Below are positions 1 through 14,573 of a stretch of DNA of 14,573 nucleotides, piece by piece. Location: IMG/VR virus record IMGVR_UViG_2645727715_000004; one strand, 5' to 3'. Numbering within the stretch: position 1 is the first letter of the stretch; every line of letters begins with the position of its first letter. The notes under the pieces were generated by a model. It was not told where the DNA came from and ran no database searches. It worked only from the letters and a program-made list of their open reading frames with translations. Made by a program: the position numbers and the translations under genes. Source of the stretch: a virus (Duplodnaviria > Heunggongvirae > Uroviricota > Caudoviricetes).

Positions 1-320
1 ATATCCGGAGTAATCCATGCATCGTATAGACACGAAAACCGCGCAGAAGGATAAGTTCGGCGCGGGTAAGAACGGTTTTACCCGTGGTAACCCCCAGATC
101 GGCACGCCTGCCACCGATCTGGATGATGACTACTTTGACATGTTGCAGGAGGAGCTTTGCAGCGTTGTGGAGGCGTCCGGTGCCAGCCTGGAGAAGGGGC
201 GGCACGACCAGCTACTTACCGCGCTTCGCGCGCTGCTGTTAAGCCGCAAGAATCCGTTTGGCGATATCAAATCGGATGGCACGGTGAAAACGGCTCTCGA
301 AAACCTTGGTTTGGGAGAAG
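1..320. repeat. Left arm of a 320-bp perfect inverted repeat; carries the RBS and first 101 codons of the tail-fibre gene; outer end coincides with the window edge
   Basis: Reverse complement of 2194..2513 checked base by base at both ends and over 1..114; ORF-track translations at 17..445(+) and 1697..2497(-) are identical for 101 aa. Identity ends at 320/2194. Confidence 0.95.
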
Positions 321-681
321 CGGCAAAACGGGATGTGGGTAACGGGCAAAACCAAATTCCTGATATGTCAGCGTGGGAGTGTGGGGGAGATACAACGACG
401 GGATGGAGGCGAAGCCGGATGGTTATATTGAACAATGGGGGCTAACTGGGGCCACAACAAATGAAGTTTTGATTAATTTTCCTATCCCATTTCCGACAGC
501 CGTCATTTCTATTAATGAACATGACCAGGCTCCTGTGGCAGGGAAAATGTCAGTATGGCAATTCTATAAATTGACTAACTCAAATGTCATAGCAGAGAAC
601 CTGGGATCTCTTGATAAAGGAAATCCATCCTTCAATGTTCCAACTGTCGCTGGTTGCCGCTGGTTTGCTACAGGAAGATAA
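17..681 (+). CDS. Alternative tail fibre protein (S'-like): shared 101-aa N-terminus plus a distinct C-terminal domain; reading frame interrupted by an apparent 1-nt deletion somewhere in 364..445
   Basis: ORF 17..445 shares its N-terminus with the minus-strand fibre; ORF 373..681 (frame open from 364) continues in the -1 frame with a plausible fibre-tip sequence; SD GGAG 7 nt upstream of the ATG at 17; stop TAA 679..681 immediately before the Tfa' start. Confidence 0.6.
294..319 (+). other. Candidate serine-invertase crossover site (hix/gix/cix-like), left copy
   Basis: CTCTCGAAAACC-TT-GGTTTGGGAGAA: 12-bp imperfect half-sites around a 2-bp core with the AAACC/GGTTT core of Hin/Gin/Cin/Pin sites (compare hixL TTCTTGAAAACCAAGGTTTTTGATAA, from memory). 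Lies at the inner boundary of the repeat. Confidence 0.55.
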
Positions 682-1123: not shown

Positions 1124-1697
1124 TATCCGGCGCGGTGCTGGTATCTGTTGCCGTCACCGCGTCAATGTAATCCAGCACGGCGTTAAGTCGGGTTGTTTCT
1201 GCCTGCGTCAGCTTCCGCCCGGCCTGCAATTTCAGTTGAATCAGACTGATGGAAGCCATTGCAGCATCAATCAGCGACTGGCGCTGTGCTTCTGCCGCTT
1301 CTACTGCGGCGCTATGCTGTGCCTCGGTATCCGTCACCCATTTCTCACCATCCCATTTATCGTATGGCGTTAACGGGGCGATAGTGGTTGTATTTTCAGG
1401 ATAATCACCCGGAGCTGTGATTTCTTTCGATTCTCCTGTTTCGGTGCTATAGATGATTTCACCGCGATGGTCTGGCACATATTCCCATGAGTTAAAATCT
1501 GCAGAACGGCAGATTGCATAACCAGCTTTATGTGTAACTGGTGCATCTAAACAAGAACATGCCGGGATACCGACGCCAACCGCAAGATATTCAGTTGATG
1601 TGGAAATATATTCCCGCGTTTCACCATCATAATTATAAATGGTAATGACTCCCGCTTTTATGGCAATGAGTTCGTTATTTAATACGGCTTTATTCAT
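1095..1697 (-). CDS. Tail fibre assembly protein (Tfa/U-like chaperone)
   Basis: 200-aa ORF directly downstream of the fibre gene; C-terminal motif DTSTAPDIIWPEQP resembles the conserved Tfa C-terminus of E. coli prophage TfaE/TfaR-type proteins (from memory). Confidence 0.8.
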   Translation of the reverse strand: MNKAVLNNELIAIKAGVITIYNYDGETREYISTSTEYLAVGVGIPACSCLDAPVTHKAGYAICRSADFNSWEYVPDHRGEIIYSTETGESKEITAPGDYPENTTTIAPLTPYDKWDGEKWVTDTEAQHSAAVEAAEAQRQSLIDAAMASISLIQLKLQAGRKLTQAETTRLNAVLDYIDAVTATDTSTAPDIIWPEQPEA

Positions 1698-2497
1698 CAG
1701 GCAGCCCTCACGATATAATTAAAGGCAATGTTACGAGGACGGTTTTCGTTTGCAGTTGGAACAATTCTTGAAGCATCAAGGCCAATCACTTTTGGGTAAA
1801 CAGCGCCATCTGTTCTTTCTGTCACCATACTTCTGATTAAGGAGAAATAACTATTGTTCGTTGAGGGGTTCAAAGGCACTACTGCCCCCTTAAACGAGCC
1901 TACTGATTCCCATATTGAATAATTTTCGGTGTTTACAGTCTTGAACTCACCATAGATATTACGTATGGCATCGCCCTGAGCGGATAATATTGCCCTCCCC
2001 GTATCCATACCACGTCCGTCATCCCAGCCACGAATAAACTCACCACGTAAATCAGGCAATTTATTTGTCGGGTAAGCCTTTGCCAGCTCCGGGTATTCTT
2101 CAGCAGAAAAAGCTGCTCCGTTGCATTTCAGCCAGCCTGTTGGCGGAGTGGCTGAAGGCCACGGAACAGGCACCCCAACAGGTAATGCAGAGCCTTCTCC
2201 CAAACCAAGGTTTTCGAGAGCCGTTTTCACCGTGCCATCCGATTTGATATCGCCAAACGGATTCTTGCGGCTTAACAGCAGCGCGCGAAGCGCGGTAAGT
2301 AGCTGGTCGTGCCGCCCCTTCTCCAGGCTGGCACCGGACGCCTCCACAACGCTGCAAAGCTCCTCCTGCAACATGTCAAAGTAGTCATCATCCAGATCGG
2401 TGGCAGGCGTGCCGATCTGGGGGTTACCACGGGTAAAACCGTTCTTACCCGCGCCGAACTTATCCTTCTGCGCGGTTTTCGTGTCTATACGATGCAT
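1697..2497 (-). CDS. Tail fibre protein (S-like), currently operon-linked orientation
   Basis: 266-aa ORF; constant N-terminus of 101 aa inside the repeat, then a [22 protein letters not shown] collar-like segment and C-terminal tip; start overlaps the gp48-like stop. Confidence 0.85.
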
Positions 2498-2513
2498 GGA
2501 TTACTCCGGATAT
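2194..2513. repeat. Right arm of the 320-bp inverted repeat; the operon-proximal tail-fibre 5' end plus the last 16 nt of the upstream gp48-like gene
   Basis: Exact reverse complement of 1..320; at 2514 it continues into gp48-like coding sequence that is unique in the window. Confidence 0.95.
2195..2220 (-). other. Candidate serine-invertase crossover site, right copy in inverted orientation
   Basis: Reverse complement of 2195..2220 is identical to 294..319. Confidence 0.55.
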
Positions 2514-3085
2514 TTAAAAATTACGTAGGTATGCGACGGGCAGAGTTTGTTAAGCACACATTCGACAACTGTGTCGCCCCAGATACGCAGTGCGGAATCA
2601 CAGGGATCGCCACATGTCATCCAGGTGGTGTTGGTGGCGGCTGGCATGTTGACCTGCCAGTAATACCGCCATTCAGGCGCGTTCACAGCGTCAGTACAGG
2701 CCGATGAGCAGGTGAACGTGCTTTTGTCGTATCGCGTGATGGTGGCATCTGGTCTGCCCAGGGCAGCAAGCTGTGCAAGATAAAAATCCTCGTTGATGCC
2801 GCCCGCCAGGTTAACCTTCGCATCCAGCCGTTGCTGACGCTGGCGAAGGGTCTGTGTCCCTGCGGGAATACATTCATCCGGCAGACCGCACAGACGCTCC
2901 CAGCGGTTTATCAGTTCAGTGGTGGTGCGCGGATCCAGCTCCCGCATCAGGGCATCCGCACGCTGATGAACGCGGGTTAATGACGGTGCCGCACCGGCAA
3001 TCGCCGGATCGCTGGCTGACCACGCCGGACCGGGGGGCAACAGTGCCGACAACAGACGGATGTAATCATCGTTTGTCACGTCCAT
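2501..3085 (-). CDS. Baseplate/tail protein, Mu gp48-like (P2 gpI-like family)
   Basis: 194-aa ORF in the conserved position between the J-like baseplate gene and the fibre; start overlaps the upstream gene's stop. Confidence 0.65.
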
Positions 3086-4134
3086 GAAATCGTCCCCAGT
3101 ACCGCCAGTTCATTTTTTGCAATGGAGATATTGTCTGCCGGTGCAAGCAACTGATGGCTGTATTCCCCGTTCGCACCGGAAATCGCCTCACTGATACGCG
3201 ATACCTTCAGTTCTCCCTGCGGATAACCATCACGCAGCAGGAACGAACGCAACTCCGCGGTGATGGCAGCCCGTATTTCCGGTGTGTCTGGCGTTACGCG
3301 GATATGAAAATCCACCGTATGCGCCACCGGCCTGAACACATACAAATCAGAGCCTGCCACCGGGGCCAGTGGCTCAATGTGTTGTCTTGCCGCCGTTTCC
3401 GTTGATTCTTCCGGAATGGGATTAATCAGGTCACTGCTGGCAATCATCACACCGACAGTTCCCGTTCCCATCCAGTGACGGTATGTCCATGCGCGGGTAA
3501 TGCCGGGCACTTCTTTAGCCCAGACGACATAGTCCCCGTCAGCCCCGCCCTGAGGCGTCCAGTAATACCGCTCAATGACGCGGGCGCGCCACGTTTCCAG
3601 ATCTTCAGTATCGAATCCGCCAGTCAGGGTATCTGCAACACCGGAAGACGGCAGACCATTCACCGGCGTGACCAGGATTAATGCCGTACCGTCGTCAGCG
3701 TTACCGACCGCGCCTGCACTTGAGCAAGTGATCGGCACGCGCAGGACACCACCGGAGCTGGTTGCATCAGCAGTTGCCGTGTATTGAACCAGGTCAGCGC
3801 GCTGAATCACGCTCCCGGCGGTCACCTTCAGGCCATCGCTGACACCTTCCCAGCGCATATACCCGCTGGCAGCCGTGGCCCCCTTGCGCGGACACCGTTT
3901 CATCGCAGCATGTCGCGCCAGCCAGGACGCATCGCACAGGTCAGGCAGCATGTTCATTGCCAGATAATCGATGTACCCGTAAACCGTATGCAGCGCCGCC
4001 GCATACACCTTTGCCCGCACGTCTTCATCCATGCGCCGGAGCGTGTCGCTGACGTCCAGCCTGGCGAATAAATCGTTACGGAGCATACTGATATTTTCTG
4101 CCAGCGTCGGGCGCTGAAATTCACTGTCCGCCAT
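3076..4134 (-). CDS. Baseplate J-like protein (Mu gp47-like)
   Basis: 352-aa ORF; size and position match the baseplate wedge J family in Mu-like tail modules. Confidence 0.75.
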
Positions 4135-4550
4135 GCGTTATCGCACTCCACAGATCATCAAAAGAAATCATTACCGGTCCGTCACGACGCCAGAGGGTGA
4201 TACTGTTACCCAGCTCATTAATCCCGGTGCGGCGGATATCCAGATCAATACGGGACACCACGCCGTCATCAGTCATCCATTGGAGGCATTCGCGGATATA
4301 CCCCCTTACTGTCTGCACCAGCTGATTGGTCAGTTTGCTGCGCTGAAGCAGCCACAGTCGGGAGCCGTAACGGTCATTCTGTCACCGCAGGCCAGGTATC
4401 CCCCCACCATCCCATCGGGACGTCGGCGTTGTCATCAGGCTCCGCCCGCCGCCAGGTAAACAGGGAAATCACCACGGCGCGGGTCAGCGGATCCAGCGGT
4501 GCGCTGGCGCAGGTGCGTTTACCGTTCACCGTCAGCCACAGTTCCATCAT
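4121..4550 (-). CDS. Baseplate protein, Mu gp46-like (gp25/GPW-like), interrupted by a frameshift near 4374..4382
   Basis: ATG at 4550 opens a 58-codon frame ending TGA at about 4376; the +1 frame continues (QNDRYGSRLWLLQRSKLTNQLVQTVRGY...) to the stop at 4121. Combined length about 143 aa matches the family. Confidence 0.55.
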
Positions 4551-5095
4551 GCCTCCATCGCTTTATCAGGTTTGTCGGTGTTACTGCCCTGACCGTTCTC
4601 TCTGTGACGATGCCCGTTATAGGCAAGCCGCATCGCTGACATGGTAGTGCCGCCGGAGTCGCACAGGTCTTTCACCTGTCCGGTCACTTCCAGGTCCATT
4701 TCAAAACGTGCTTCAGGTGCATTGCGAAACGTGATCGTTTTCCCTGCACCGTCCACCACGATCCCTTCCCGGGTCAGTGTCACGGACTGCCCCTGATCGT
4801 CATAGACAGCCACCTCCCCCGTCTGCAGCCCTTTCAGGCGGTAGCGCCGGTCCGACACCGTAACAACCACCGCATGAGAACGGTCGCCATCCGGAAACAA
4901 CACCACCGCTTCCGCACCGCTGTTTGCCCTTGCGGTAAAACCGTAGGGTTCAAGATGCTCAACCCTGGCTTTGGGTTCACCGGCAATCAGGGACACATCC
5001 ACGGTCTGACATTTCGTGGCGGCACTGATGCTTTTCACCACTGCCCGCCCAATCAGGCCGAGGAGTTGTCGCTGCATGGCTTCAATCGTCCTCAT
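4547..5095 (-). CDS. Baseplate assembly protein V-like / spike (Mu gp45-like)
   Basis: 182-aa ORF; start overlaps the P-like stop (ATGA); size and position fit the gpV family. Confidence 0.75.
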   Translation of the reverse strand: MRTIEAMQRQLLGLIGRAVVKSISAATKCQTVDVSLIAGEPKARVEHLEPYGFTARANSGAEAVVLFPDGDRSHAVVVTVSDRRYRLKGLQTGEVAVYDDQGQSVTLTREGIVVDGAGKTITFRNAPEARFEMDLEVTGQVKDLCDSGGTTMSAMRLAYNGHRHRENGQGSNTDKPDKAMEA

Positions 5096-6174
5096 CAGAA
5101 CGGGTCCTCCTGTACTCTGGCTTTTTTCTTTTTCCGCGCACCGGGATCTTCGGGTTCAGGCAGATAAGCATCAGGCGGGCCGACACGGATTTCCGTCAGG
5201 GTGCCGTTCTGGTCCTGAGTAAACGTGACTTCCGAGACAAGCAGTTCGGTATTGTCGAAACCACAGACCGGATCGAAGACAATCACCCGCTGGTTGGGCT
5301 GCCACAGCGTACCGTTACCCTGTCGCCAGCCCTGCACCACATAGGTGGTTTCATCCGTCCGCGCCGCCCGTTGTCGGGCTTCAAAGTCAGCACGGGCAAT
5401 ACAGCCTGCCCCCGTGGCCTGCCCTGTCTGCCTGATATACATCGGACGGTAACGGGCAATAAATGCGTCCTCTGTGCGGGCCCGCAGCGCGGTGGTGGTG
5501 GCCTCACCGAAATCATCGTCGTTTCCGGCACGCTGCCCCGCCACCTGGTAAACAGAAAACCGCTCCCGGATACTCTTCTCCGTATCGCAGGAAAGGATGT
5601 TTTCCCCAAGTACCAGCGCGGTATGTGCCCGCGTTGAGCCAATACCGCCAATCACCAGCCTGCCGTGCGGGTCGTCGTAAGCCAGCGCCTGCTGCTGACC
5701 GAGTATTTTGTTGATCACCTCAATCACCGTTTCACCGTGATCAGGCTGGACATCAGGAATAACACCAGACGGCGCACCGCTGTTCACCACCTCAATGCCG
5801 AAAGGCGCAGCAAGCGCCTGCGCAATCTGAACCAGCGATCGTCCGTTAAACTGTGTCGGTTCGGCTGCACAGTCAATCAGGTCAGCGGTCAGACTACGCC
5901 CAGCAATACCGGTGCTGACCGAACGGGCATCGTAACGAACGGGAGTCGCCTCCACCCAGCCGGTGATCACCAGCTCATCACCAATCAGCACTTCCACTTT
6001 TGAACCGTTTTTAATACGCGGCTGAAGCGTGGTGATACCCTCATCTCCCGGCCACTGGCGGGTGATCTCCACACTGAAATCCCGCGTCAGCCGTTCAATA
6101 CCGGCACCGATGCGCACCGATGTCCAGCCATTCCACTCCCGGCCATTTACCCGTAGCGTGACGTTATCATTCAT
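5095..6174 (-). CDS. Tail protein, Mu P-like (P2 gpD-like baseplate hub)
   Basis: 359-aa ORF, N-terminus MNDNVTLRVNGREWNGWTSVRIG typical of Mu P / gpD-like tail proteins; follows the N-like gene as in Mu. Confidence 0.75.
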   Translation of the reverse strand: MNDNVTLRVNGREWNGWTSVRIGAGIERLTRDFSVEITRQWPGDEGITTLQPRIKNGSKVEVLIGDELVITGWVEATPVRYDARSVSTGIAGRSLTADLIDCAAEPTQFNGRSLVQIAQALAAPFGIEVVNSGAPSGVIPDVQPDHGETVIEVINKILGQQQALAYDDPHGRLVIGGIGSTRAHTALVLGENILSCDTEKSIRERFSVYQVAGQRAGNDDDFGEATTTALRARTEDAFIARYRPMYIRQTGQATGAGCIARADFEARQRAARTDETTYVVQGWRQGNGTLWQPNQRVIVFDPVCGFDNTELLVSEVTFTQDQNGTLTEIRVGPPDAYLPEPEDPGARKKKKARVQEDPF

Positions 6175-7499
6175 AGCACTGGCACCTTCAGAGGGATCAC
6201 CGGCACAAAGCCGGGATGCGTAATGGCATTACGCCGGATAATGTCCGCGTCACGCGCCGCGTTATCAAACCAGGTCGCCGCCAGCACCAGCGCGGGTAAG
6301 ACCTCATCCGGCGTGCGCTGAATGATCCGTGCAGACTGTTCAAGGCGCGTGTTGATATCCGCATTCAGATCTGCTTTCACCCGGCGCAGCGCCAGAAACA
6401 GCGCATCACTGGTTGTACGGGACAACTCCTTATCAATTGCCGTATTCAGTGTGTCGCGAATGTCAGTCAGTTCTTCCCACGTCGGCAGGTCAACCGTGTT
6501 TTTCACCGCCGGTGCATTGTTCAGTGCCGGATGCGTGACGGAAGGCCAGCCGGTGCTCTGCGCGGGTGTTGTTGACTGCCCCACTGCGGCATTCTGCATC
6601 ACCGCGGAAATTGTTGGCGCAGGCAATCGGGTGATGGCATACGCCGCTTCGCTGATTGCGGTCGTACGAAGGGTGCTGGCAACCACGTTACGCTGCTGCG
6701 TTGCCGTGGCGGTGGTTTTACTGTCCGTTTTCCAGACGCCGCGCGGTTGCAGATCGCTGCCGAGGCTGACACCAGAAAGCGTTTTGATCATGGTGACCAG
6801 GTCGCTGGCGTTACCATAAAGGCGCTTCCCGGTACGCCACATTTTCTGCACCTGCTCAACGAAATTTTTTCCTGACGATGGCGGCGGCAGAAGTACCGAG
6901 ATATCCCCCTGCAACAGCCTGGCGGCATCCGATACGGCAGAATCCACCACTTTCATCGCATCAGAAACATACCCCAGCATTGTGCTGGCATTACCGATAA
7001 CGTCGTTCTGTACGAAACCCGCCACGCCATCGATACTGAAACCACTGAAGCTGTCACTGATGCAGTCATCCAGCGCAGAACAGGATGACATCAGCGTCTG
7101 CGCCGTCGCCGCGCCTGATGTGGGGTAAGAGAGTTCTCCCGCTTCGACAAACTTCAGGTCAAAGCGGACAATACGCCCTTCACTCTTCGATGTGCTGACC
7201 CGAACTTCCCCGTCAACACAGACTTTCAGCTCACCGTATGTCGGGTGGACAAGCATGCCGGGACCGGGTTTATTCAGCGCTTCAATCAGGCGATCGCGCT
7301 GGTCAAAGCAGTCATCTCCCACCACATAAGCCGTGATGGACGGGCGGAAAGTGATTTTCCCCAGGTCTTCGGTATAGGGTTTGTCGCGGTTCGGGTATTC
7401 GTGTGTTTCCACACGACGACCGGTTCCCGCACTTTCTTCTTCAACCTTAAACGGCACACCGCGAAATGACGCGTCCTGAAGTCTGTCTTTCCACGTCAT
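6171..7499 (-). CDS. DNA circularisation protein N-like (Mu gpN family)
   Basis: N-terminus MTWKDRLQDASFRGVPFKVEEES is characteristic of Mu N-like proteins. Start placed at the ATG at 7499 rather than the 7541 start of the ORF track, which would run into the terminator hairpin. Confidence 0.8.
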   Translation of the reverse strand: MTWKDRLQDASFRGVPFKVEEESAGTGRRVETHEYPNRDKPYTEDLGKITFRPSITAYVVGDDCFDQRDRLIEALNKPGPGMLVHPTYGELKVCVDGEVRVSTSKSEGRIVRFDLKFVEAGELSYPTSGAATAQTLMSSCSALDDCISDSFSGFSIDGVAGFVQNDVIGNASTMLGYVSDAMKVVDSAVSDAARLLQGDISVLLPPPSSGKNFVEQVQKMWRTGKRLYGNASDLVTMIKTLSGVSLGSDLQPRGVWKTDSKTTATATQQRNVVASTLRTTAISEAAYAITRLPAPTISAVMQNAAVGQSTTPAQSTGWPSVTHPALNNAPAVKNTVDLPTWEELTDIRDTLNTAIDKELSRTTSDALFLALRRVKADLNADINTRLEQSARIIQRTPDEVLPALVLAATWFDNAARDADIIRRNAITHPGFVPVIPLKVPVL

Positions 7500-7514
7500 A
7501 TAAACTCCGTACAT

Positions 7515-7536
7515 AAAAAATCCCACCGGAGTGGGA
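7515..7536 (-). terminator. Possible weak intrinsic terminator / attenuator between tape measure and N-like gene
   Basis: On the minus strand: 6-bp stem TCCCAC/GTGGGA with 4-nt loop, followed directly by TTTTTT (plus-strand A-run 7515..7520), in a 60-bp intergenic gap. Confidence 0.4.
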
Positions 7537-7559
7537 CTCATTAACAGATTAATTTTTCA

Positions 7560-9393
7560 TTACCTGCCAAAGCGCGTATAGCCAACATCATGGCTGACAT
7601 CAAAACCGCTGGATCGCGTTTCCATAACCCGCATACCCGGAGGCGAATTCACAAAAGAGACCTTGATCTCACCATCAACTTTTGGCGCAGAAGCTTTGTT
7701 AATCATGAAGGGATTCGGGCCTGTGGCATCGGAGGCGTTGTTTGATTGAGCCGGATCTACCGCCGGATAAGGTGTGTATCCCCGCGCCGGTATTCCCGTC
7801 CCATAAGCATCATAAGCACCCGCGCCCCACTGCGCAGAGTTAATGGCATCGACCGTGTCACCGGAACTGTCGGTAAACCACTCAATAATTGGCTTCAGCT
7901 TGTCCCACATATCCTGAAACCACTTAACAACCGGTCCCCAGTTATTGATCACTATCCCCAGCGGCGACCAGGCAAAAACCTTCTTAAGAAGTTCCCAGCC
8001 AGCCTCAAAATAAGGACCAATGGTTTCCCAGAGTTTCTTAAAATAAGGTCCGACAACATCCCAGTTAGTGATAATTAATCCCGCAGCCAGGCTATCGCCG
8101 TCGCAATCATGCCAATCGGCGTCATCGACATAATCCTGCTGACAATACTGATGGCACCGCCAACGCCCATCAATCCCAGTTTCAGAATCGCAAGACCGGC
8201 AGCAAGCCCGACGACGCCGCGAATAACCCGGGGATTTTCATCCGCAAACTTCGTGAATTTTTCCCCTAACTCCCCCAGCCATTGCGTGATATTTTTGGCG
8301 TCACCAGAAAATGCGCCGCCAATAGCCGCAAGGCCGTTAGTTGCGGTCCCCGTCATTGCCTCCCACAGGTTGGACAGCGTTCCAAGCTGGGCCTGAACAC
8401 GTTTATTCAGGCTGGCCTGTTTATTCATCTTCTGCTGGATCTGATCGTAGCCATCCTTTCCTTTATCGATTAGTGCATTGACCACCTGAAGGGTTTCGGC
8501 ATCATCACCAAATATTGCCTTAAGTACACCTGTTCGCTTAACGTCTGTCAGTTTTCGCAGCTTTGCCAGTTGCTTAAACATGTTATCAAGACCGCCAAAA
8601 CTCCCTTTGCCGTCAGTAAAATCGAGCTGCACTCCGAGTTTCTGGCGGGCCATGACTTTATTGACGTCCCTGATTTTCTTAACGCTTAATCCGGACTGGA
8701 TAACTTTTCGCAGGGCATTACCTGCCGACTCCCCGTTCATCCCCATCTGATCCATCATGACGCTGATAGGGGCAAGGCTCTGTGCAGCCTGAAGTCCGTC
8801 CTTATTCACCATCTTCAGAACAGAACTGGTTTTAGTGAAGAAGGACAACATGTTGGTATCGTCAACGCCCAGATAAAACGCCTTCTGGATAGTGTCGAAC
8901 AGCCCCATCATGTCTTCTGACGCCGTTCCGGTAGCATCCTGCATCTTTGCAGCAAACTCAGCAGCCGCTTCCGGTGTTTTTTTCAGTTGTACCGCAAGAT
9001 AAGCTGTCGCTTTACCCACACCACCAAGAATGTTTTCTGCCGGGATCCCTGACGCACCAGCATCTGCATCATGTTCTGGAAATCAGCCGTTGTACCGGGT
9101 AGCTGGTTACCCAGGCCAATAGCCAGTTTATTGATGTCCTGAAAGCTCTTTCCAACCTCGCCGTTCGCATCCATCATAGCGACTTTCAGCCCGGTGGCGG
9201 CGTTTTCCTGATCAGCATAAGATTTCAGGGAAAGCGTCAGACCCGCTGCCAGTCCGCCACCAAGCGCCAGCCCACCCTGTGACGCTTCTTCCGCCTGGCG
9301 TTTAAATCCCCGGATTTTCTTTTGCATTTTCGACAGCGCGGGAGAAAGCCTGTCGACACCGGTGATCAACGCCTTAAGCTCAAATTCAGCCAT
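7560..9393 (-). CDS. Tail tape measure protein, interrupted by two apparent 1-nt deletions (about 9042..9054 and 8071..8080)
   Basis: Three consecutive minus-strand ORFs (8983..9393, 8075..9019, 7560..7952) form one roughly 612-codon reading frame if one base is restored at each junction (VRQG|IPAENILGG and WLRD|LIITNW). Shows the hydrophobic segment and W-rich C-terminal repeats typical of tape measure proteins. Confidence 0.7.
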
Positions 9394-9804
9394 GTGTGCG
9401 TTTCTCCTGCTCTATCCTGTTTGCCTGACTGACCAGCAAGGGAATTTCACTGATCGGCATATTCAGCAATTCGAAGGGATTAATGCGCCAGTAGCTGGCG
9501 CAGTCAAAGAAGCGATCAGTGAGGTATTCAGCCGTCAGGCCTGGAGGAAAAAACCAGCCACAAGCCACGCCGCTGCATTCAGGTCTGCCGGAGACATCTG
9601 GTCGACAGAGCTTTGCGGCACTTTCGCCAGCCGCACAATGTATTTCGACACCACATGCGCCAGAAGTCTGACGGACTCATCCTGATTCATCTGGTAGGGA
9701 TACCCCAGCTCGCGGACATCCTTCCCGGTGGGCTCATCAAACTCCAGTACGGAGAGTGTCTCACCATGAGCGATAATCGGTTTCTTTAACTCAAGCTCTT
9801 TCAT
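9386..9804 (-). CDS. Tail assembly chaperone frameshift fusion product (gpGT / gpE+E' analogue) made by programmed -1 ribosomal frameshift
   Basis: The -1 frame ORF 9386..9568 overlaps the 3' end of the chaperone ORF and ends 8 nt inside the tape measure start; slippery heptamer T_TTT_TTC lies in the overlap. Confidence 0.65.
9535..9804 (-). CDS. Tail assembly chaperone (lambda gpG / P2 gpE analogue)
   Basis: 89-aa ORF between tube and tape measure genes; carries the slippery site at its 3' end. Confidence 0.75.
   Translation of the reverse strand: MKELELKKPIIAHGETLSVLEFDEPTGKDVRELGYPYQMNQDESVRLLAHVVSKYIVRLAKVPQSSVDQMSPADLNAAAWLVAGFFLQA
9547..9553 (-). other. Slippery heptamer T TTT TTC for the programmed -1 frameshift
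   Basis: Minus-strand codons GGT TTT TTC in the zero frame; plus-strand gaaaaaa at 9547..9553. Confidence 0.6.
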
Positions 9805-10160
9805 TACTGGTAATCCCCTTCTTCACCGTGGAACTCAAGATCAACCGTGCCTTCTTCGGCATTATGGTTCGCTTCTCCGTGCAGCCAGGCGGACGACAAT
9901 ACATAGACCTGACCGTTCGCCAGCTCGGCAGTGATAGTCATCTCATCAGACGAGGTGATTTTGTTCACCGGAAAATTCTTCGGCACCTTGAAAGTCCCTT
10001 TGACATAAGGCGCACGGTGAGTTTCCTTGCGGTCCACTGAACCGTCCAGGCCGATGATGTCATCATTGACCGTCCTGTTCATGGGCACCTCAATGCCGCC
10101 GGTCAGCGATAGCTGTTGACCGTCAATTTTGAAATAACAGGTTCCCCCGATACGGGCCAT
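9804..10160 (-). CDS. Tail tube protein (Mu gpM-like)
   Basis: 118-aa ORF immediately downstream of the sheath gene, start overlapping the sheath stop. Confidence 0.75.
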   Translation of the reverse strand: MARIGGTCYFKIDGQQLSLTGGIEVPMNRTVNDDIIGLDGSVDRKETHRAPYVKGTFKVPKNFPVNKITSSDEMTITAELANGQVYVLSSAWLHGEANHNAEEGTVDLEFHGEEGDYQ

Positions 10161-11656
10161 TATGCAGACTCCTCTGAATACTGAAGACGGAACTGGTTAA
10201 CCACGGCAAAGACACGCAACTGGTTAACATAGTCAGGCGGGAACAGCGTGTTCAGGCGGTTCGGATCGCTGGCATCACGCTCCACAACCAGGTACTGCTT
10301 AAACAGTTCGTAGTTTTCCACGATCCCCGCACGCTCAAGCTGACGGTAGGTTGCCAGCAGTTCCCCTTTGATCACCGCCGGTGTGACAATCGCCTGACCG
10401 GGACCAAAGCGGGTACCGTCGCTGGCAAGCTTGTGACGCCCGTACTTACTGGTAATGACGGATTTCAGTTTGCGCAGTACATACGCGCTGGTATGCAGCG
10501 TCTCGCTGTCGAGGTAGCTGTTATCCGCAACACCGTAAGCGTTTTTCCTGTACGTGGTGACATCACGCTGAATGCGCAGCACCCCGCTTTCGACATACGC
10601 CGTTGCCACGCCATGAGACAGCAGGGTCTGTTGTTCGGTCATCGTGAACCGTTTCCCCTTCGGCGCAGGCAGCATACCCACCAGTTCACCGGTCTGCGTG
10701 GGACGTGCCGGATCGTTGCGAATAAACACCGCTGCGCGGGCGGTACGGCTTGCCGCCAGCTCGTCGGCAGGCGTCTGGGTCTCTTTTTCGTATCCCGCCA
10801 GGGTAATGTGCTGCTGGTTAAACTGGTCACCTGCGGTCACCAGTTCTGACAGCGTGCCGGTCTTTGCCGTATACACATGACCATACAGCTGACGCGCATA
10901 GCTCCAGCGACCGCTGGTATCGTTCATCTCGGTCACCAGCGTGTTAACGGAGGCCGTGTCGTTGAACGGCAGGCCGATATAATCAAACGGCTCATCCGCC
11001 ATTGCAGCCACCGCGCCGGTGAGAACCGGAGCGCCCGTTCCGGCGATCCCCGTCGCCACGGCAATCTGTACGCCCGCTGGCAGCACTTCGCCCCCACCAA
11101 AGCCGTAGTAATTGAGGCTGACAGGAATTTCATTCCCGCAAAGCCCCTTATGACGCGCGGTCAGTGTGACCACGCCTGCCGAAGATGAGGCAGTAAACGG
11201 CAGGGTCGGAACGGCATTGATGGCATCTTTGATACTGCTGGCAATCGTCGCGACGTTATCGCCGTTGGTCACCGGTGCCTGCACGCGGGTACGTCCCACA
11301 TAAACATTCACCGTGCCGGTTTCGGTTGCCGCGCCGGTCACCGTCAGCGTAACTGTTGCCGCCGCGCCCGTGGATTCAGGAACGGCAATCACATACAGTT
11401 CACCAAACGGGTCGGTCTGGCGATAAGCCTCGACCATACGCGCCAGCTGACTTCCCGCACCACAAATCTGGCGTGCATAGTCTGCCGATGGCATCAGCAC
11501 CAGACTGTTGGCAACAATCTCTGCACCGTTATTGGCATGACCAATCAGCAGCGATGCTCCGCTGTCCTGTGCAGTATTCGCCGCCGAGTTATCCATTTCC
11601 GCATAAAAAATCGGAACCAGCGTATTCGACGGAATGGTGTTAAAGCTTATCGTCAT
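10160..11656 (-). CDS. Contractile tail sheath protein (Mu gpL-like)
   Basis: 498-aa ORF, N-terminus MTISFNTIPSNTLVPIFYAEMDNS typical of Mu-like sheath proteins; followed by tube and chaperone genes. Confidence 0.85.
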   Translation of the reverse strand: MTISFNTIPSNTLVPIFYAEMDNSAANTAQDSGASLLIGHANNGAEIVANSLVLMPSADYARQICGAGSQLARMVEAYRQTDPFGELYVIAVPESTGAAATVTLTVTGAATETGTVNVYVGRTRVQAPVTNGDNVATIASSIKDAINAVPTLPFTASSSAGVVTLTARHKGLCGNEIPVSLNYYGFGGGEVLPAGVQIAVATGIAGTGAPVLTGAVAAMADEPFDYIGLPFNDTASVNTLVTEMNDTSGRWSYARQLYGHVYTAKTGTLSELVTAGDQFNQQHITLAGYEKETQTPADELAASRTARAAVFIRNDPARPTQTGELVGMLPAPKGKRFTMTEQQTLLSHGVATAYVESGVLRIQRDVTTYRKNAYGVADNSYLDSETLHTSAYVLRKLKSVITSKYGRHKLASDGTRFGPGQAIVTPAVIKGELLATYRQLERAGIVENYELFKQYLVVERDASDPNRLNTLFPPDYVNQLRVFAVVNQFRLQYSEESA

Positions 11657-11810
11657 CGGTATTCACCTTTTCATTCACGCGCCGGATATCACCCGCTGCT
11701 TCACGGCGCAGCCAGTAGTTGTTCTCATCAACATTTCGCCCCTCGGCGGGCAAAAGGTCGCCGCGGGCAGGGTCAGGCACTGACCGCCCTTTAACAGGTT
11801 TCACAAACAT
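11640..11810 (-). CDS. Small ORF (56 aa) upstream of and overlapping the sheath start; not in the supplied ORF track
   Basis: Hand translation: ATG at 11810 nine nt after the preceding gene's stop, MFVKPVKGRSVPDPARGDLLPAEGRNVDENNYWLRREAAGDIRRVNEKVNTDDDKL, stop TAA 11640..11642. Fills the otherwise empty 160-bp gap. Confidence 0.45.
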   Translation of the reverse strand: MFVKPVKGRSVPDPARGDLLPAEGRNVDENNYWLRREAAGDIRRVNEKVNTDDDKL

Positions 11811-11818
11811 GAAGATTC

Positions 11819-12379
11819 TCAGGAAGGAAGGGTTATTTCGGTGTGATGTTCGATATCGCCGTCAGGCCCGTTACCGGGATCGAGATAATCAACATCAATC
11901 GCCAGCGTTCGCAGTTCATCCAGACTGTTCAGGTCATCCTGCTGGCGGGTATCGTCTTCGGTCAGCTCGCTGATGACCGAAAAATCGAACTGATAAATCA
12001 GCTCATGACGATTCAGATCCAGCAGCGTGCCGCCGTCATAGGTAATCGGGTTACCGCACGCTTCCGGGTTCCAGCCCAGCAGGGCCTTAAAGAGCATCTG
12101 CCGGACATCGTCCACCACATCATACGAAGCAAACTGACCGCGCTCATCACGCCCGTTACTCAGTATGACAACCACGGAGAAGCCCTCTTTCAGCTCCTGC
12201 CAGTAGTCGGTCTGGCTTTTGTTTTCTCCCGGAGAATCATCACCCGGTACAACATATGCCGCCGGGAGTTTCAGCTTTCCGACCTCCGGCAGATTTTTGA
12301 ACTGGGCCGCGCCTGCAACCCGGTTTTCAAAATACGGACAGCGGGCACGCAGTGCAGCAATAACAGGCGTCAGTTTCAT
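11819..12379 (-). CDS. Putative neck / tail-completion (tail terminator-like) protein
   Basis: 186-aa ORF between the gp10-like neck gene and the sheath; function assigned by position only. Confidence 0.45.
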   Translation of the reverse strand: MKLTPVIAALRARCPYFENRVAGAAQFKNLPEVGKLKLPAAYVVPGDDSPGENKSQTDYWQELKEGFSVVVILSNGRDERGQFASYDVVDDVRQMLFKALLGWNPEACGNPITYDGGTLLDLNRHELIYQFDFSVISELTEDDTRQQDDLNSLDELRTLAIDVDYLDPGNGPDGDIEHHTEITLPS

Positions 12380-12881
12380 CTGTGTCGTCGCTCCGGCTTC
12401 AGTGATTTACGCAATTCCCGCGCCAGAAAATAGCGTGTCCAGCTGCGGTTCTTTTCAAGCGTTTCCACCATGAAGTTATTACGTGGAGCCAGTCGCCAGC
12501 CGCTGCCACCGGATGCACCACGATGATGGCTGCGACGACGCTTTGCCCCTCGCCTCACGCCATAGAACAAAAAAGCCGGATAAAAATCACCGGTGATACG
12601 GCGGTTTCCCTCTCCATTACGCTGGTTAGGGGCTATACGTGCCATAAAACCAGGGCGATGTTTACTGGCTCTGGGTACCATGTAACCAATCGAACGAGCC
12701 AGGCGTCCGGTCTGATAACCGGGGTTTTCACCCGGTGCCGACCGCGCACGGCGCATCACCAGCGACGGGCATCACGCATATGACGCTGACCAATCGTGAC
12801 AAACGCCCGCCGGACACGGGCGCGGTTAAAGCGCATCTCCGCGGGCTGCTGAAAATCAACGTGCAAAAAGGAAGTCGTCAT
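12376..12881 (-). CDS. HK97 gp10-family head-tail joining protein, interrupted by an apparent 1-nt deletion near 12757..12766
   Basis: ATG at 12881 gives MTTSFLHVDFQQPAEMRFNRARVRRAFVTIGQRHMRDARRW then stop; the -1 frame continues as VMRRARSAPGENPGYQTGRLARS... to 12376. Restoring one base makes one roughly 168-aa protein. Confidence 0.55.
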
Positions 12882-13266
12882 TGTTGCCTCCGTGACTCTG
12901 CCCACATTCGCCCAGCTCCGTACACTCCAGCAGCAGAAAGCGCCGCGCCCCGTTCAGATCGCGCTGACGTTTCACCCGGTACACACTGTCACCGCAGACC
13001 ACCTCATAATCAGCGGTGATCCCCCGGCGGTAACGAATGGTGATGTAATGGGTGATGGCGTCCCCGGTCTGCGCGGTTTCCTGCCAGGTGGTGGCACTGG
13101 TCTGGATAACCTTCGCCCATGTCCGGAACGTAACCGGGTATTGAGGCTCCACGCCAAAGTTATCCGCGGGCATATCCACCCGCTGGCGGATCAGGACGCG
13201 TTTATTCAGTTCACCGGGGTCCGGCAGAATGTAGGTTGCGCTGGTCTGCGCCTGACGAATTTTCAT
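12856..13266 (-). CDS. Head closure / head-tail adaptor protein
   Basis: 136-aa ORF following the connector gene with overlapping start/stop; size and position fit. Confidence 0.6.
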   Translation of the reverse strand: MKIRQAQTSATYILPDPGELNKRVLIRQRVDMPADNFGVEPQYPVTFRTWAKVIQTSATTWQETAQTGDAITHYITIRYRRGITADYEVVCGDSVYRVKRQRDLNGARRFLLLECTELGECGQSHGGNNDDFLFAR

Positions 13267-13586
13267 TGCGGAAAGTACCTGTACGGGCCGACAAGCCAGC
13301 CAAAACTCTGCGGCATGTCGAGTTTCTCCACTTCCGTAACCGACGAGCGGTTTTCGTAAAAATGGCTGATAAGCATCAGCATCCCCAGACGAATATCATC
13401 CGGCAGGTGCAGCCCGTCCGGATCGCTGTCCGGAATGGTTTCATCCGGTGCATAGAGCTTCCGGTTCAGATACGTTTCCGTCCGCTTTTGTGCCGCACAG
13501 GCCAGCAGTTGCAGATGGCGGTCATCAGCATCGAAATCCTCATCCAGCCGGAGTTGGGCTTTAATCTCTTCCATTGTCAGAAGCAT
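13263..13586 (-). CDS. Head-tail connector protein (HK97 gp6-like)
   Basis: 107-aa acidic ORF, MLLTMEEIKAQLRLDEDFDADDRHLQLL..., typical of gp6-like connector proteins; conserved position after the capsid gene. Confidence 0.65.
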   Translation of the reverse strand: MLLTMEEIKAQLRLDEDFDADDRHLQLLACAAQKRTETYLNRKLYAPDETIPDSDPDGLHLPDDIRLGMLMLISHFYENRSSVTEVEKLDMPQSFGWLVGPYRYFPQ

Positions 13587-13588
13587 AC

Positions 13589-13789
13589 TCAGCCCTCTTT
13601 ACTGGTCGTGGCTTTTTTCTCTTTTGCCGCTTTACTGCTTTTTGCACTGATTCCGCGCTCTGCTAACCCGGCCTGAAGTGCAATCTCCTGCACCCGGGCA
13701 GGAAGCGCCCCGTCGTCATACTCACCGGCCCGAATGACCTCAACACGCATACCGTCCGGTGACCATTTCAGATCTTGTTTCAGGATCAT
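13589..13789 (-). CDS. Hypothetical small phage protein (66 aa, lysine-rich C-terminus)
   Basis: ORF with SD-like GGTGAAG upstream of ATG at 13789; sits between capsid and connector genes. Confidence 0.45.
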   Translation of the reverse strand: MILKQDLKWSPDGMRVEVIRAGEYDDGALPARVQEIALQAGLAERGISAKSSKAAKEKKATTSKEG

Positions 13790-13811
13790 GATTCTTCACC
13801 CGTCAGAACAG

Positions 13812-13831
13812 GGGGCGCGGTTCCGCGCCCC
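13812..13831 (-). terminator. GC-rich hairpin just after the major capsid gene; possible attenuator or RNA-stability element
   Basis: 9-bp GC stem GGGGCGCGG/CCGCGCCCC (13812..13820 / 13823..13831) in the 49-bp gap after the capsid stop; no clear U-tract on the minus strand. Confidence 0.35.
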
Positions 13832-13838
13832 TGAGTGA

Positions 13839-14573
13839 TTACGCCGCTGCAATCTTCAGCAGTTTGATGGCCTGCGAATCGACCAGCATCCCGCCGGTGC
13901 GCTTGGTGGTATAAAAACCGACAAACGGTTTATTGGTGTACGGGTCACGCAGAATGCGGGTGCCGATACGGTCAACGATGGTGTAACCCCGTTTGAAGTT
14001 ACCAAATGCAATGGCTTTCGCATCAGCGGCGATATCCGGCATCTGTTCGTTTTCAGCGATACCGTAACCCGCCAGAGAGGACGGCTGCCCCAGTTCCAGC
14101 CCCGGACGCCACAGATAGTTACCCTCGGTGTCTTTCAGCAGACGGATGGCAAACAGGCTGTTGTTGTTCATCATGAACTTCGCGCCAGTGCGGTGTGCCT
14201 TACGCAGCGTGTAAATCAGTTTGATAATGGCGTCTGCGGTCACCGCGGTCGCTTCGCCGGATACAATATGCTGAAGTTTGCCGAACGCCCGGACCTTATC
14301 GGTTTCATCAGTAGATTCATACGCCAGGAACCCTTTTGGCTTCTTGGTACCATCGCCGGTGGTAAAGGCAATTTCTTCCTGTTCGGCAAATTCGGTCGCC
14401 AGCTCGCTGTTGATCCAGGCCTCCACGTTGAAGAAGGCATCGTCCAGCATTTTCTGGGTAGCCTGCGGGTTGCCGTAGATTTCCCCCATGAGAGGTTCAA
14501 TCAGCTCCAGTCTGGAGGTGGCAGTCTGGGATCGCGTATCCGTTACCCCCACCCATCCGGAAGCCGTACCGCC
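13839..14573 (-). CDS. Major capsid protein, HK97 family (5'-truncated; continues beyond the right edge)
   Basis: C-terminal region shows the GNFKRGYTIVDR and RILRDPYT type motifs of HK97-fold capsid proteins; the frame stays open upstream of the listed M to base 14573. Confidence 0.85.
   Translation of the reverse strand, partial: GGTASGWVGVTDTRSQTATSRLELIEPLMGEIYGNPQATQKMLDDAFFNVEAWINSELATEFAEQEEIAFTTGDGTKKPKGFLAYESTDETDKVRAFGKLQHIVSGEATAVTADAIIKLIYTLRKAHRTGAKFMMNNNSLFAIRLLKDTEGNYLWRPGLELGQPSSLAGYGIAENEQMPDIAADAKAIAFGNFKRGYTIVDRIGTRILRDPYTNKPFVGFYTTKRTGGMLVDSQAIKLLKIAAA

Follow-up and report, generated by a model that had tools for sequence, protein, structure and literature searches.

The locus at one end of this contig from Escherichia coli D92/09 is the known e14/SfV-type Pin-invertible P segment, in which the frame of one of the two alternative tail fibre tips is interrupted by a single missing C. 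The window analyzed here, 14,573 nt in full, is the whole of contig LEKZ01000190.1 from assembly GCA_001038025.1. The C is very probably missing because a homopolymer was undercalled in the consensus of an Ion Torrent PGM assembly at 16.5x coverage. This reading is favored because the assembly is an Ion Torrent draft, because the contig carries five private gene-breaking indels, and because the intact allele is present in 50 of 50 complete genomes that carry the same cassette. As the indel is most probably an error, with no mutation in the strain, both phases of the fibre switch are most likely intact. The frameshift is thus most probably no real biological feature, and the underlying invertible fibre system is already known.

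The features that define the locus, together with the private indels of the contig, are collected in Table 1.

Table 1. Features of the invertible fibre locus and private single-nucleotide indels in the 14,573-nt window
Feature	Position	Strand	Basis or gene affected
Contig-end copy of Sc with ribosome-binding site and ATG	1..320	+	100% inverted copy of 2194-2513
Truncated fibre product, 142 aa (starts MHRIDTK): constant N-terminus (residues 1-101), start of alternative tip, 9 out-of-frame residues, stop	17..445	+	
Pin-type crossover site, 26 bp, CTCTCGAAAACCTTGGTTTGGGAGAA, Sc/Sv' junction	294..319	+	
Sv', alternative tip, Gp53-like_C	321-681	+	Pfam after correction
Downstream frame, Gp53-like C-terminal receptor-binding tip of the alternative fibre (Sv')	364..681	+	Pfam Gp53-like_C after correction
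Frameshift site, CC run (CCC in every relative), one C missing	415..416	+	Alignment and blastn
Tail fibre assembly chaperone paired with Sv' (tfa'), 146 aa	683..1123	+	Pfam Caudo_TAP, 118 bits; tail fiber assembly protein in relatives
Tail fibre assembly chaperone paired with Sv (tfa), 200 aa	1095..1697	-	Pfam Caudo_TAP, 116 bits
Intact fibre, 266 aa (Sc + Sv, Collar), expressed orientation, downstream of the ymfQ-like gene	1697..2497	-	
Sv, tip with Collar domain	1697-2193	-	Pfam
Sc, constant fibre N-terminus	2194-2497	-	
Pin-type crossover site, 26 bp, Sc/Sv junction	2195..2220	-	
YmfQ / Mu Gp48-like baseplate gene, directly upstream of the fibre gene	2501..3085	-	Pfam Phage_Mu_Gp48; ymfQ in relatives
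Private indel, CCC to CC	after 414		Fibre tip Sv'
Private indel, +C	4383		GP46
Private indel, GGG to GG	after 8089		Tape measure
Private indel, CCCC to CCC	after 9046		Tape measure
Private indel, CC to C	after 12762		168-aa head/tail protein

The sequence-only reading had recognized the interrupted frame as the alternative (S'-like) tip of an invertible switch, and the Gp53-like_C tip, the crossover sites and the paired chaperones bear this out. An inverted pair of ~26-bp crossover sites flanks the segment, Sc lies outside it, and inside it are two tips in opposite orientations, each with a chaperone of its own. The core of the crossover site, TTGGTTTGGGAGAAG, agrees at 15 of 16 bases with the inverted repeat of the e14 P segment, TTGGTTTGGGAGAAGG (PMC12529663); the next base in the window is C. 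The ribosome-binding site, start codon and first 101 codons of the 266-aa fibre gene are contained in 2194-2513. Clustering at 90% identity places this fibre in a group of 74, and the other members listed, which come from E. coli and Salmonella, have a length of 266 aa in nearly every case; the exact sequence of the fibre was seen on two contigs. Both orientations of the segment are found in nature, with Sc joined to Sv' in FDAARGOS_1250 and pinE beside Sv' in EC6622. No serine invertase gene is present in the 14,573-nt window, the contig ending where this gene would be expected, and in finished relatives pinE or a recombinase-family gene lies directly beside Sv'.

With this arrangement, the locus is the switch that sets host range through the tail fibre in a prophage of SfV/e14 type whose tail module is Mu-like. 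The constant Sc lies outside an invertible P segment of ~1.9 kb, which carries Sv (Collar) and Sv' (Gp53-like_C) in opposite orientations with a chaperone after each. A Pin-family serine invertase would recombine the two 26-bp sites, fusing Sc to either tip. The start of the Sv' chaperone is annotated differently among records: the source record places it at 635 (635-1123, 162 aa), whereas relatives use the ATG at 683 (146 aa), two bases beyond the stop codon of the fibre gene; in this 146-aa form, the Pfam match starts at residue 9.

The same plan is found in the P segment of e14 in E. coli K-12 (stfP/tfaP/tfaE/stfE, pinE), with Sc outside and two tips and two chaperones inside, inversion by the Pin serine recombinase and a shared repeat core, TTGGTTTGGGAGAAG(G). 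In both elements ymfQ lies upstream and one tip carries a gp53-like domain. The two differ in the length of the segment (~1.9 kb here, 1,797 bp in K-12 e14) and in their state, e14 being a remnant whereas the structural module of the window is complete apart from 1-nt indels. The tip cassettes also differ in sequence from those of some relatives, and the invertase gene, present in e14 as pinE, is missing from LEKZ01000190.1 because the contig ends at the junction.

Beyond the fibre locus, the window is that of an SfV/e14-like prophage with a Mu-type tail. Its genes are collinear and near-identical, at 97-98% over ~12.4 kb, with those of SfI, SfII, SfV and 689R6, and across 2194-14573, which includes baseplate, tape measure, sheath, tube and head-tail genes, the DNA is 97-98% identical to SfV, SfI, SfII and SfIV of Shigella/E. 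coli and to vB_EcoM-689R6. The called genes include the Pfam families Mu Gp45, Gp46 and Gp48, Baseplate_J and DNA_circ_N. Matches to the SfV-type phage records start at 2194 or 2010, so these phages lack the Sv'/tfa' cassette of the window. As in relatives, a gap of ~140 nt (9393-9535) separates the tail assembly protein gene (9535-9804) from the tape measure start; this is the expected place of a tail-chaperone programmed frameshift product, and the record of phage 689R6 has a small overlapping ORF annotated in the equivalent region.

In the Mu G segment and the P1 C segment, a serine invertase flips two fibre C-termini and their chaperones behind a constant N-terminus (S/S', U/U'). The comparison of these switches, driven by Gin and Cin, with the locus concerns their working, not family membership; the fibre proteins of Mu and P1 are different from those of the window and much longer. 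Both are also referred to in work on invertible segments (PMC4272514).

The Sv'-tfa' cassette itself was found at ~99% identity, with an invertase gene adjacent, in the P2-like prophages of E. coli W and B-766. In these genomes it forms the end of a fibre whose N-terminus is of P2 type, unlike that of the window and longer (in B-766 the protein has 400 aa), and the surrounding tail genes make up a P2-type cluster. The matching stretches (3969-4824 in the E. coli W locus, L001; 3178-4822 in the B-766 locus, L002) are fused to a P2-type fibre or lie beside a P2-type invertase. Because the same cassette occurs at ~99% identity in P2-type clusters, ready-made invertible tip cassettes are common to Mu-tail and P2-tail prophages. 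Where Sv' faces the invertase, at 3969-4382 in E. coli W and at 2966-3382 in a further locus (L005), automatic annotation places a 138-aa product under the name "gp53-like domain-containing protein". Its short N-terminus comes from the invertase-side flank, and the product is the counterpart of e14 StfE. Chimeric StfE2-type products have recently been reported to block T2 adsorption (PMC12529663).

The interruption of Sv' is seen as two overlapping frames. ORF 373..681 belongs to a frame that is open from 364, following a TGA at 361-363, and it overlaps ORF 17..445 at 364..445 with a phase offset of one base, so that one added base joins both. The first reading of this stretch was therefore correct that the fibre frame is broken and can be joined by a single base, and the alignment with intact genes agrees. 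It had suspected a G-run at 383..387, which is in fact identical across all aligned relatives. Comparison with homologous fibre genes, which it had proposed as the way to find the lesion, located the gap at the C run, CCC to CC at 415-416: the window reads GAAGCCGGATGG where three complete E. coli genomes read GAAGCCCGGATGG.

As deposited, the 142-aa product comprises 133 native residues followed by the out-of-frame tail, lacks the Gp53-like tip and has no Pfam domain match. With the C restored, a 221-aa fibre is obtained in which Gp53-like_C occupies residues 134-221, matching PF21882 with E = 6e-12 and 46.3 bits, above the gathering cut-off of 24.9. The break in the frame thus coincides with the start of the domain at residue 134. 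The corrected protein differs from WP_435302470.1 of FDAARGOS_1250 at a single residue of the constant part (I28T), the Sv' part being identical; the protein collection has no entry identical to the corrected 221-aa form (the I28 variant), and this one-residue neighbor is the nearest one. Because the joined frame matches Gp53-like_C and corresponds base by base to intact genes of complete genomes, the overlap of the two ORFs is, on sequence grounds, not a product of chance.

The same evidence bears on the proposal that ORFs 17..445 and 373..681 are separate genes, the first for a genuinely short protein, a scenario that the sequence-only reading had named as the outcome that would overturn its view. 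Both ORFs were called mechanically, and the source record lists 17-445 as a gene. Homologues, on the other hand, form one continuous ORF (221 aa in FDAARGOS_1250, the longer P2-type fibre in B-766), and the Pfam domain begins right at the break, leaving the 142-aa product domainless with an out-of-frame tail. These homologues exclude the two-gene scenario for practical purposes, and we give it next to no credence.

To place the allele among a broader sample, an 81-nt query centred on the indel site was compared with 5,426 complete E. coli genomes. The Sv'-tfa' cassette is carried by 50 complete E. coli genomes at 98-99.6% identity, with the matches listed one base longer than the query. The 81-nt query found 54 places in 50 genomes, the best identity of 98.8% corresponding to a single gap, and the extra C was present in 50 of 50. 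No exact match was obtained, and the CC allele was thus seen in none of the 50 cassette-carrying genomes among the 5,426 covered by this query. An exact-protein look-up records the 142-aa product only from LEKZ01000190.1. Its 90% cluster has three other members, all with the CCC allele, which end early elsewhere, at 144, 152 and 189 aa, one of them annotated as partial. The phage collection holds no record covering the Sv' part, hence no phage genome in it is informative at the indel site. The loss of one C is therefore a 1-nt homopolymer change (CCC to CC) private to a single assembly.

Moreover, the lesion in Sv' is not isolated. Comparison of the window with EC6622, LD26-1 and phage vB_EcoM-689R6, each 97-98% identical to it, revealed five private 1-nt indels in 14.6 kb, four of which are contractions of G/C runs (Table 1). 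The exception, the insertion at 4383, is no simple homopolymer extension. The four indels outside the fibre (4383, 8089, 9046 and 12762) likewise break conserved genes that are otherwise intact: the two in the tape measure gene divide it into three ORFs, and GP46 and the 168-aa gene are also split. In relatives, GP46 (426 nt) and the tape measure gene (1,836 nt) are intact. When all five indels are undone, ORFs of 221, 142 (GP46), 611 (tape measure) and 168 aa are recovered with no internal stops, and their sizes match those of relatives.

Against five relatives, 49 substitutions are private to the window, comprising 33 synonymous, 16 non-synonymous and no nonsense changes. The twice-broken tape measure gene has three private substitutions, all synonymous. 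These counts hint at a signature of purifying selection, unlike that of a decaying or long-dead prophage, although the test is a weak one, resting on only five relatives from a mosaic family that is ~2% divergent. The ratio of indels to substitutions is indecisive, as 49 "private" substitutions remain; it is the synonymous excess and the absence of stops that are informative. A picture of real decay at the fibre locus is offered by the finished genome of E. coli NH-21 (locus L008, 1323-3999), where the invertase is frameshifted and truncated, the chaperone truncated, and stfP truncated with a missing stretch, in contrast to the isolated 1-nt indels of the window.

The repetition of like breaks along the contig also speaks to the idea that the frame change is functional, through programmed ribosomal frameshifting or slipped-strand phase variation at the C run. 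Nothing supports this idea except that a short homopolymer lies where the frames meet. In relatives the protein is encoded in one frame throughout, hence there is no conserved frameshift signal, and four unrelated breaks of the same kind lie on the same contig. Known contingency tracts are much longer than a run of 2-3 nt, and the run here falls far below their length. A functional frame change is thus extremely improbable.

Homopolymer-length errors are the main type of error in Ion Torrent and 454 chemistries, as Loman et al. in Nat Biotechnol in 2012 and Bragg et al. in PLoS Comput Biol in 2013 reportedly found, and the contraction of G/C runs is characteristic of flow-based sequencing. The announcement of the D92/09 genome describes the sequencing of 400-bp fragments on an Ion Torrent PGM (314 chip) at 16.5x coverage, that is, flow-based chemistry at low coverage, and assembly by the Torrent Assembler plugin into 343 contigs with 5,893 CDS in 5.08 Mb (PMC4588619). 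The resulting density, ~1.16 CDS per kb, compares with ~0.98 annotated features per kb in finished EC6622 (4,664 in 4.76 Mb). It is ~18% higher than the annotated-feature density of finished relatives such as EC6622, which fits the splitting of ORFs across the genome. Low coverage at the contig end provides no specific excuse at position 415, because the interior of an invertible segment gains reads from both orientations.

A true mutation in D92/09 must be weighed against this background. In that case the flipped segment would yield a fibre that ends after 142 aa without the Gp53-like domain, and the switch would have one dead phase. The deletion is present in the deposited sequence, lesions do accumulate in resident prophages (NH-21 being an example, with its frameshifted invertase and truncated stfP), and a tip that is not expressed escapes selection while flipped out. 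Set against these points, the CC allele is found in none of the 50 complete genomes and in no other member of the protein cluster; it belongs to a set of five private 1-nt indels within 14.6 kb, each falling in an essential, conserved gene that is otherwise intact; stop codons are absent and the private substitutions mainly synonymous; and the platform and coverage of D92/09 are known for precisely such errors. We therefore regard a true deletion as unlikely. The sequence-only reading was right to pose a fibre truncated in one orientation and a sequencing error as the alternatives, and the evidence favors the error; its suggestion that one phase may be dead finds no support in an Ion Torrent draft with five private indels when the allele is intact in 50 of 50 genomes.

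The fibre start that precedes Sv' in the window requires an explanation of its own. It lies within a 320-nt perfect inverted repeat (1-320 against 2194-2513), which begins with the first base of the contig; the library fragments, at 400 bp, exceed it in length. The two copies in the window are 100% identical, whereas relatives show 2-3.5% divergence over the 1-320 stretch. Positions 1-320 match once only in each of EC6622, LD26-1 and phage 689R6, and in the finished genomes of EC6622, LD26-1, MB53 and E. coli W an invertase gene stands in place of the second Sc copy. In EC6622, the Sv' side adjoins this gene via a different outer half-site, in which TTTTCATAAACG directly precedes TTGGTTTGGGAGAAG. 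Orientations of the e14 segment are documented to coexist in clonal cultures (PMC4272514). Positions 1-320 are probably a contig-end assembly overhang: reads crossing the Sc-Sv' junction, from cells in which the segment was flipped, would have extended the contig. The repeat could instead mean that the 5' end of the fibre gene is truly duplicated on both sides of the P segment, or that a second, related prophage contributed it, since the repeat is present and several related places are often found in one E. coli genome. Its start at the first base of the contig, its length below that of the fragments, the perfect identity of copies whose relatives diverge, the single match in EC6622, LD26-1 and 689R6 with an invertase there in four finished genomes, and the mixed orientations documented for e14 all argue against both versions, which we consider improbable. 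The overhang reading also qualifies the "shared N-terminal frame" described from the sequence: a fibre N-terminus is indeed present at 17-320, and it duplicates 2194-2497 and is probably no second real start.

These data call for caution with every seeming pseudogene, split ORF or dead phase of a switch on this contig, as the assembly is a low-coverage Ion Torrent draft. Should the CC allele prove real, which we judge to be quite unlikely, one phase in this Crohn's-associated STEC would produce a tipless 142-aa stub and, with the four other frameshifts, the element would be a freshly and multiply inactivated SfV-like prophage. A real deletion would add one more inactivated prophage gene and no new mechanism, albeit with some local interest, as StfE-type products with a gp53-like domain from the P segment of e14 have recently been reported to block T2 adsorption (PMC12529663). 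If the overhang reading of positions 1-320 is right, both orientations of the P segment were present in the sequenced culture, a hint that the fibre switch is active in D92/09.
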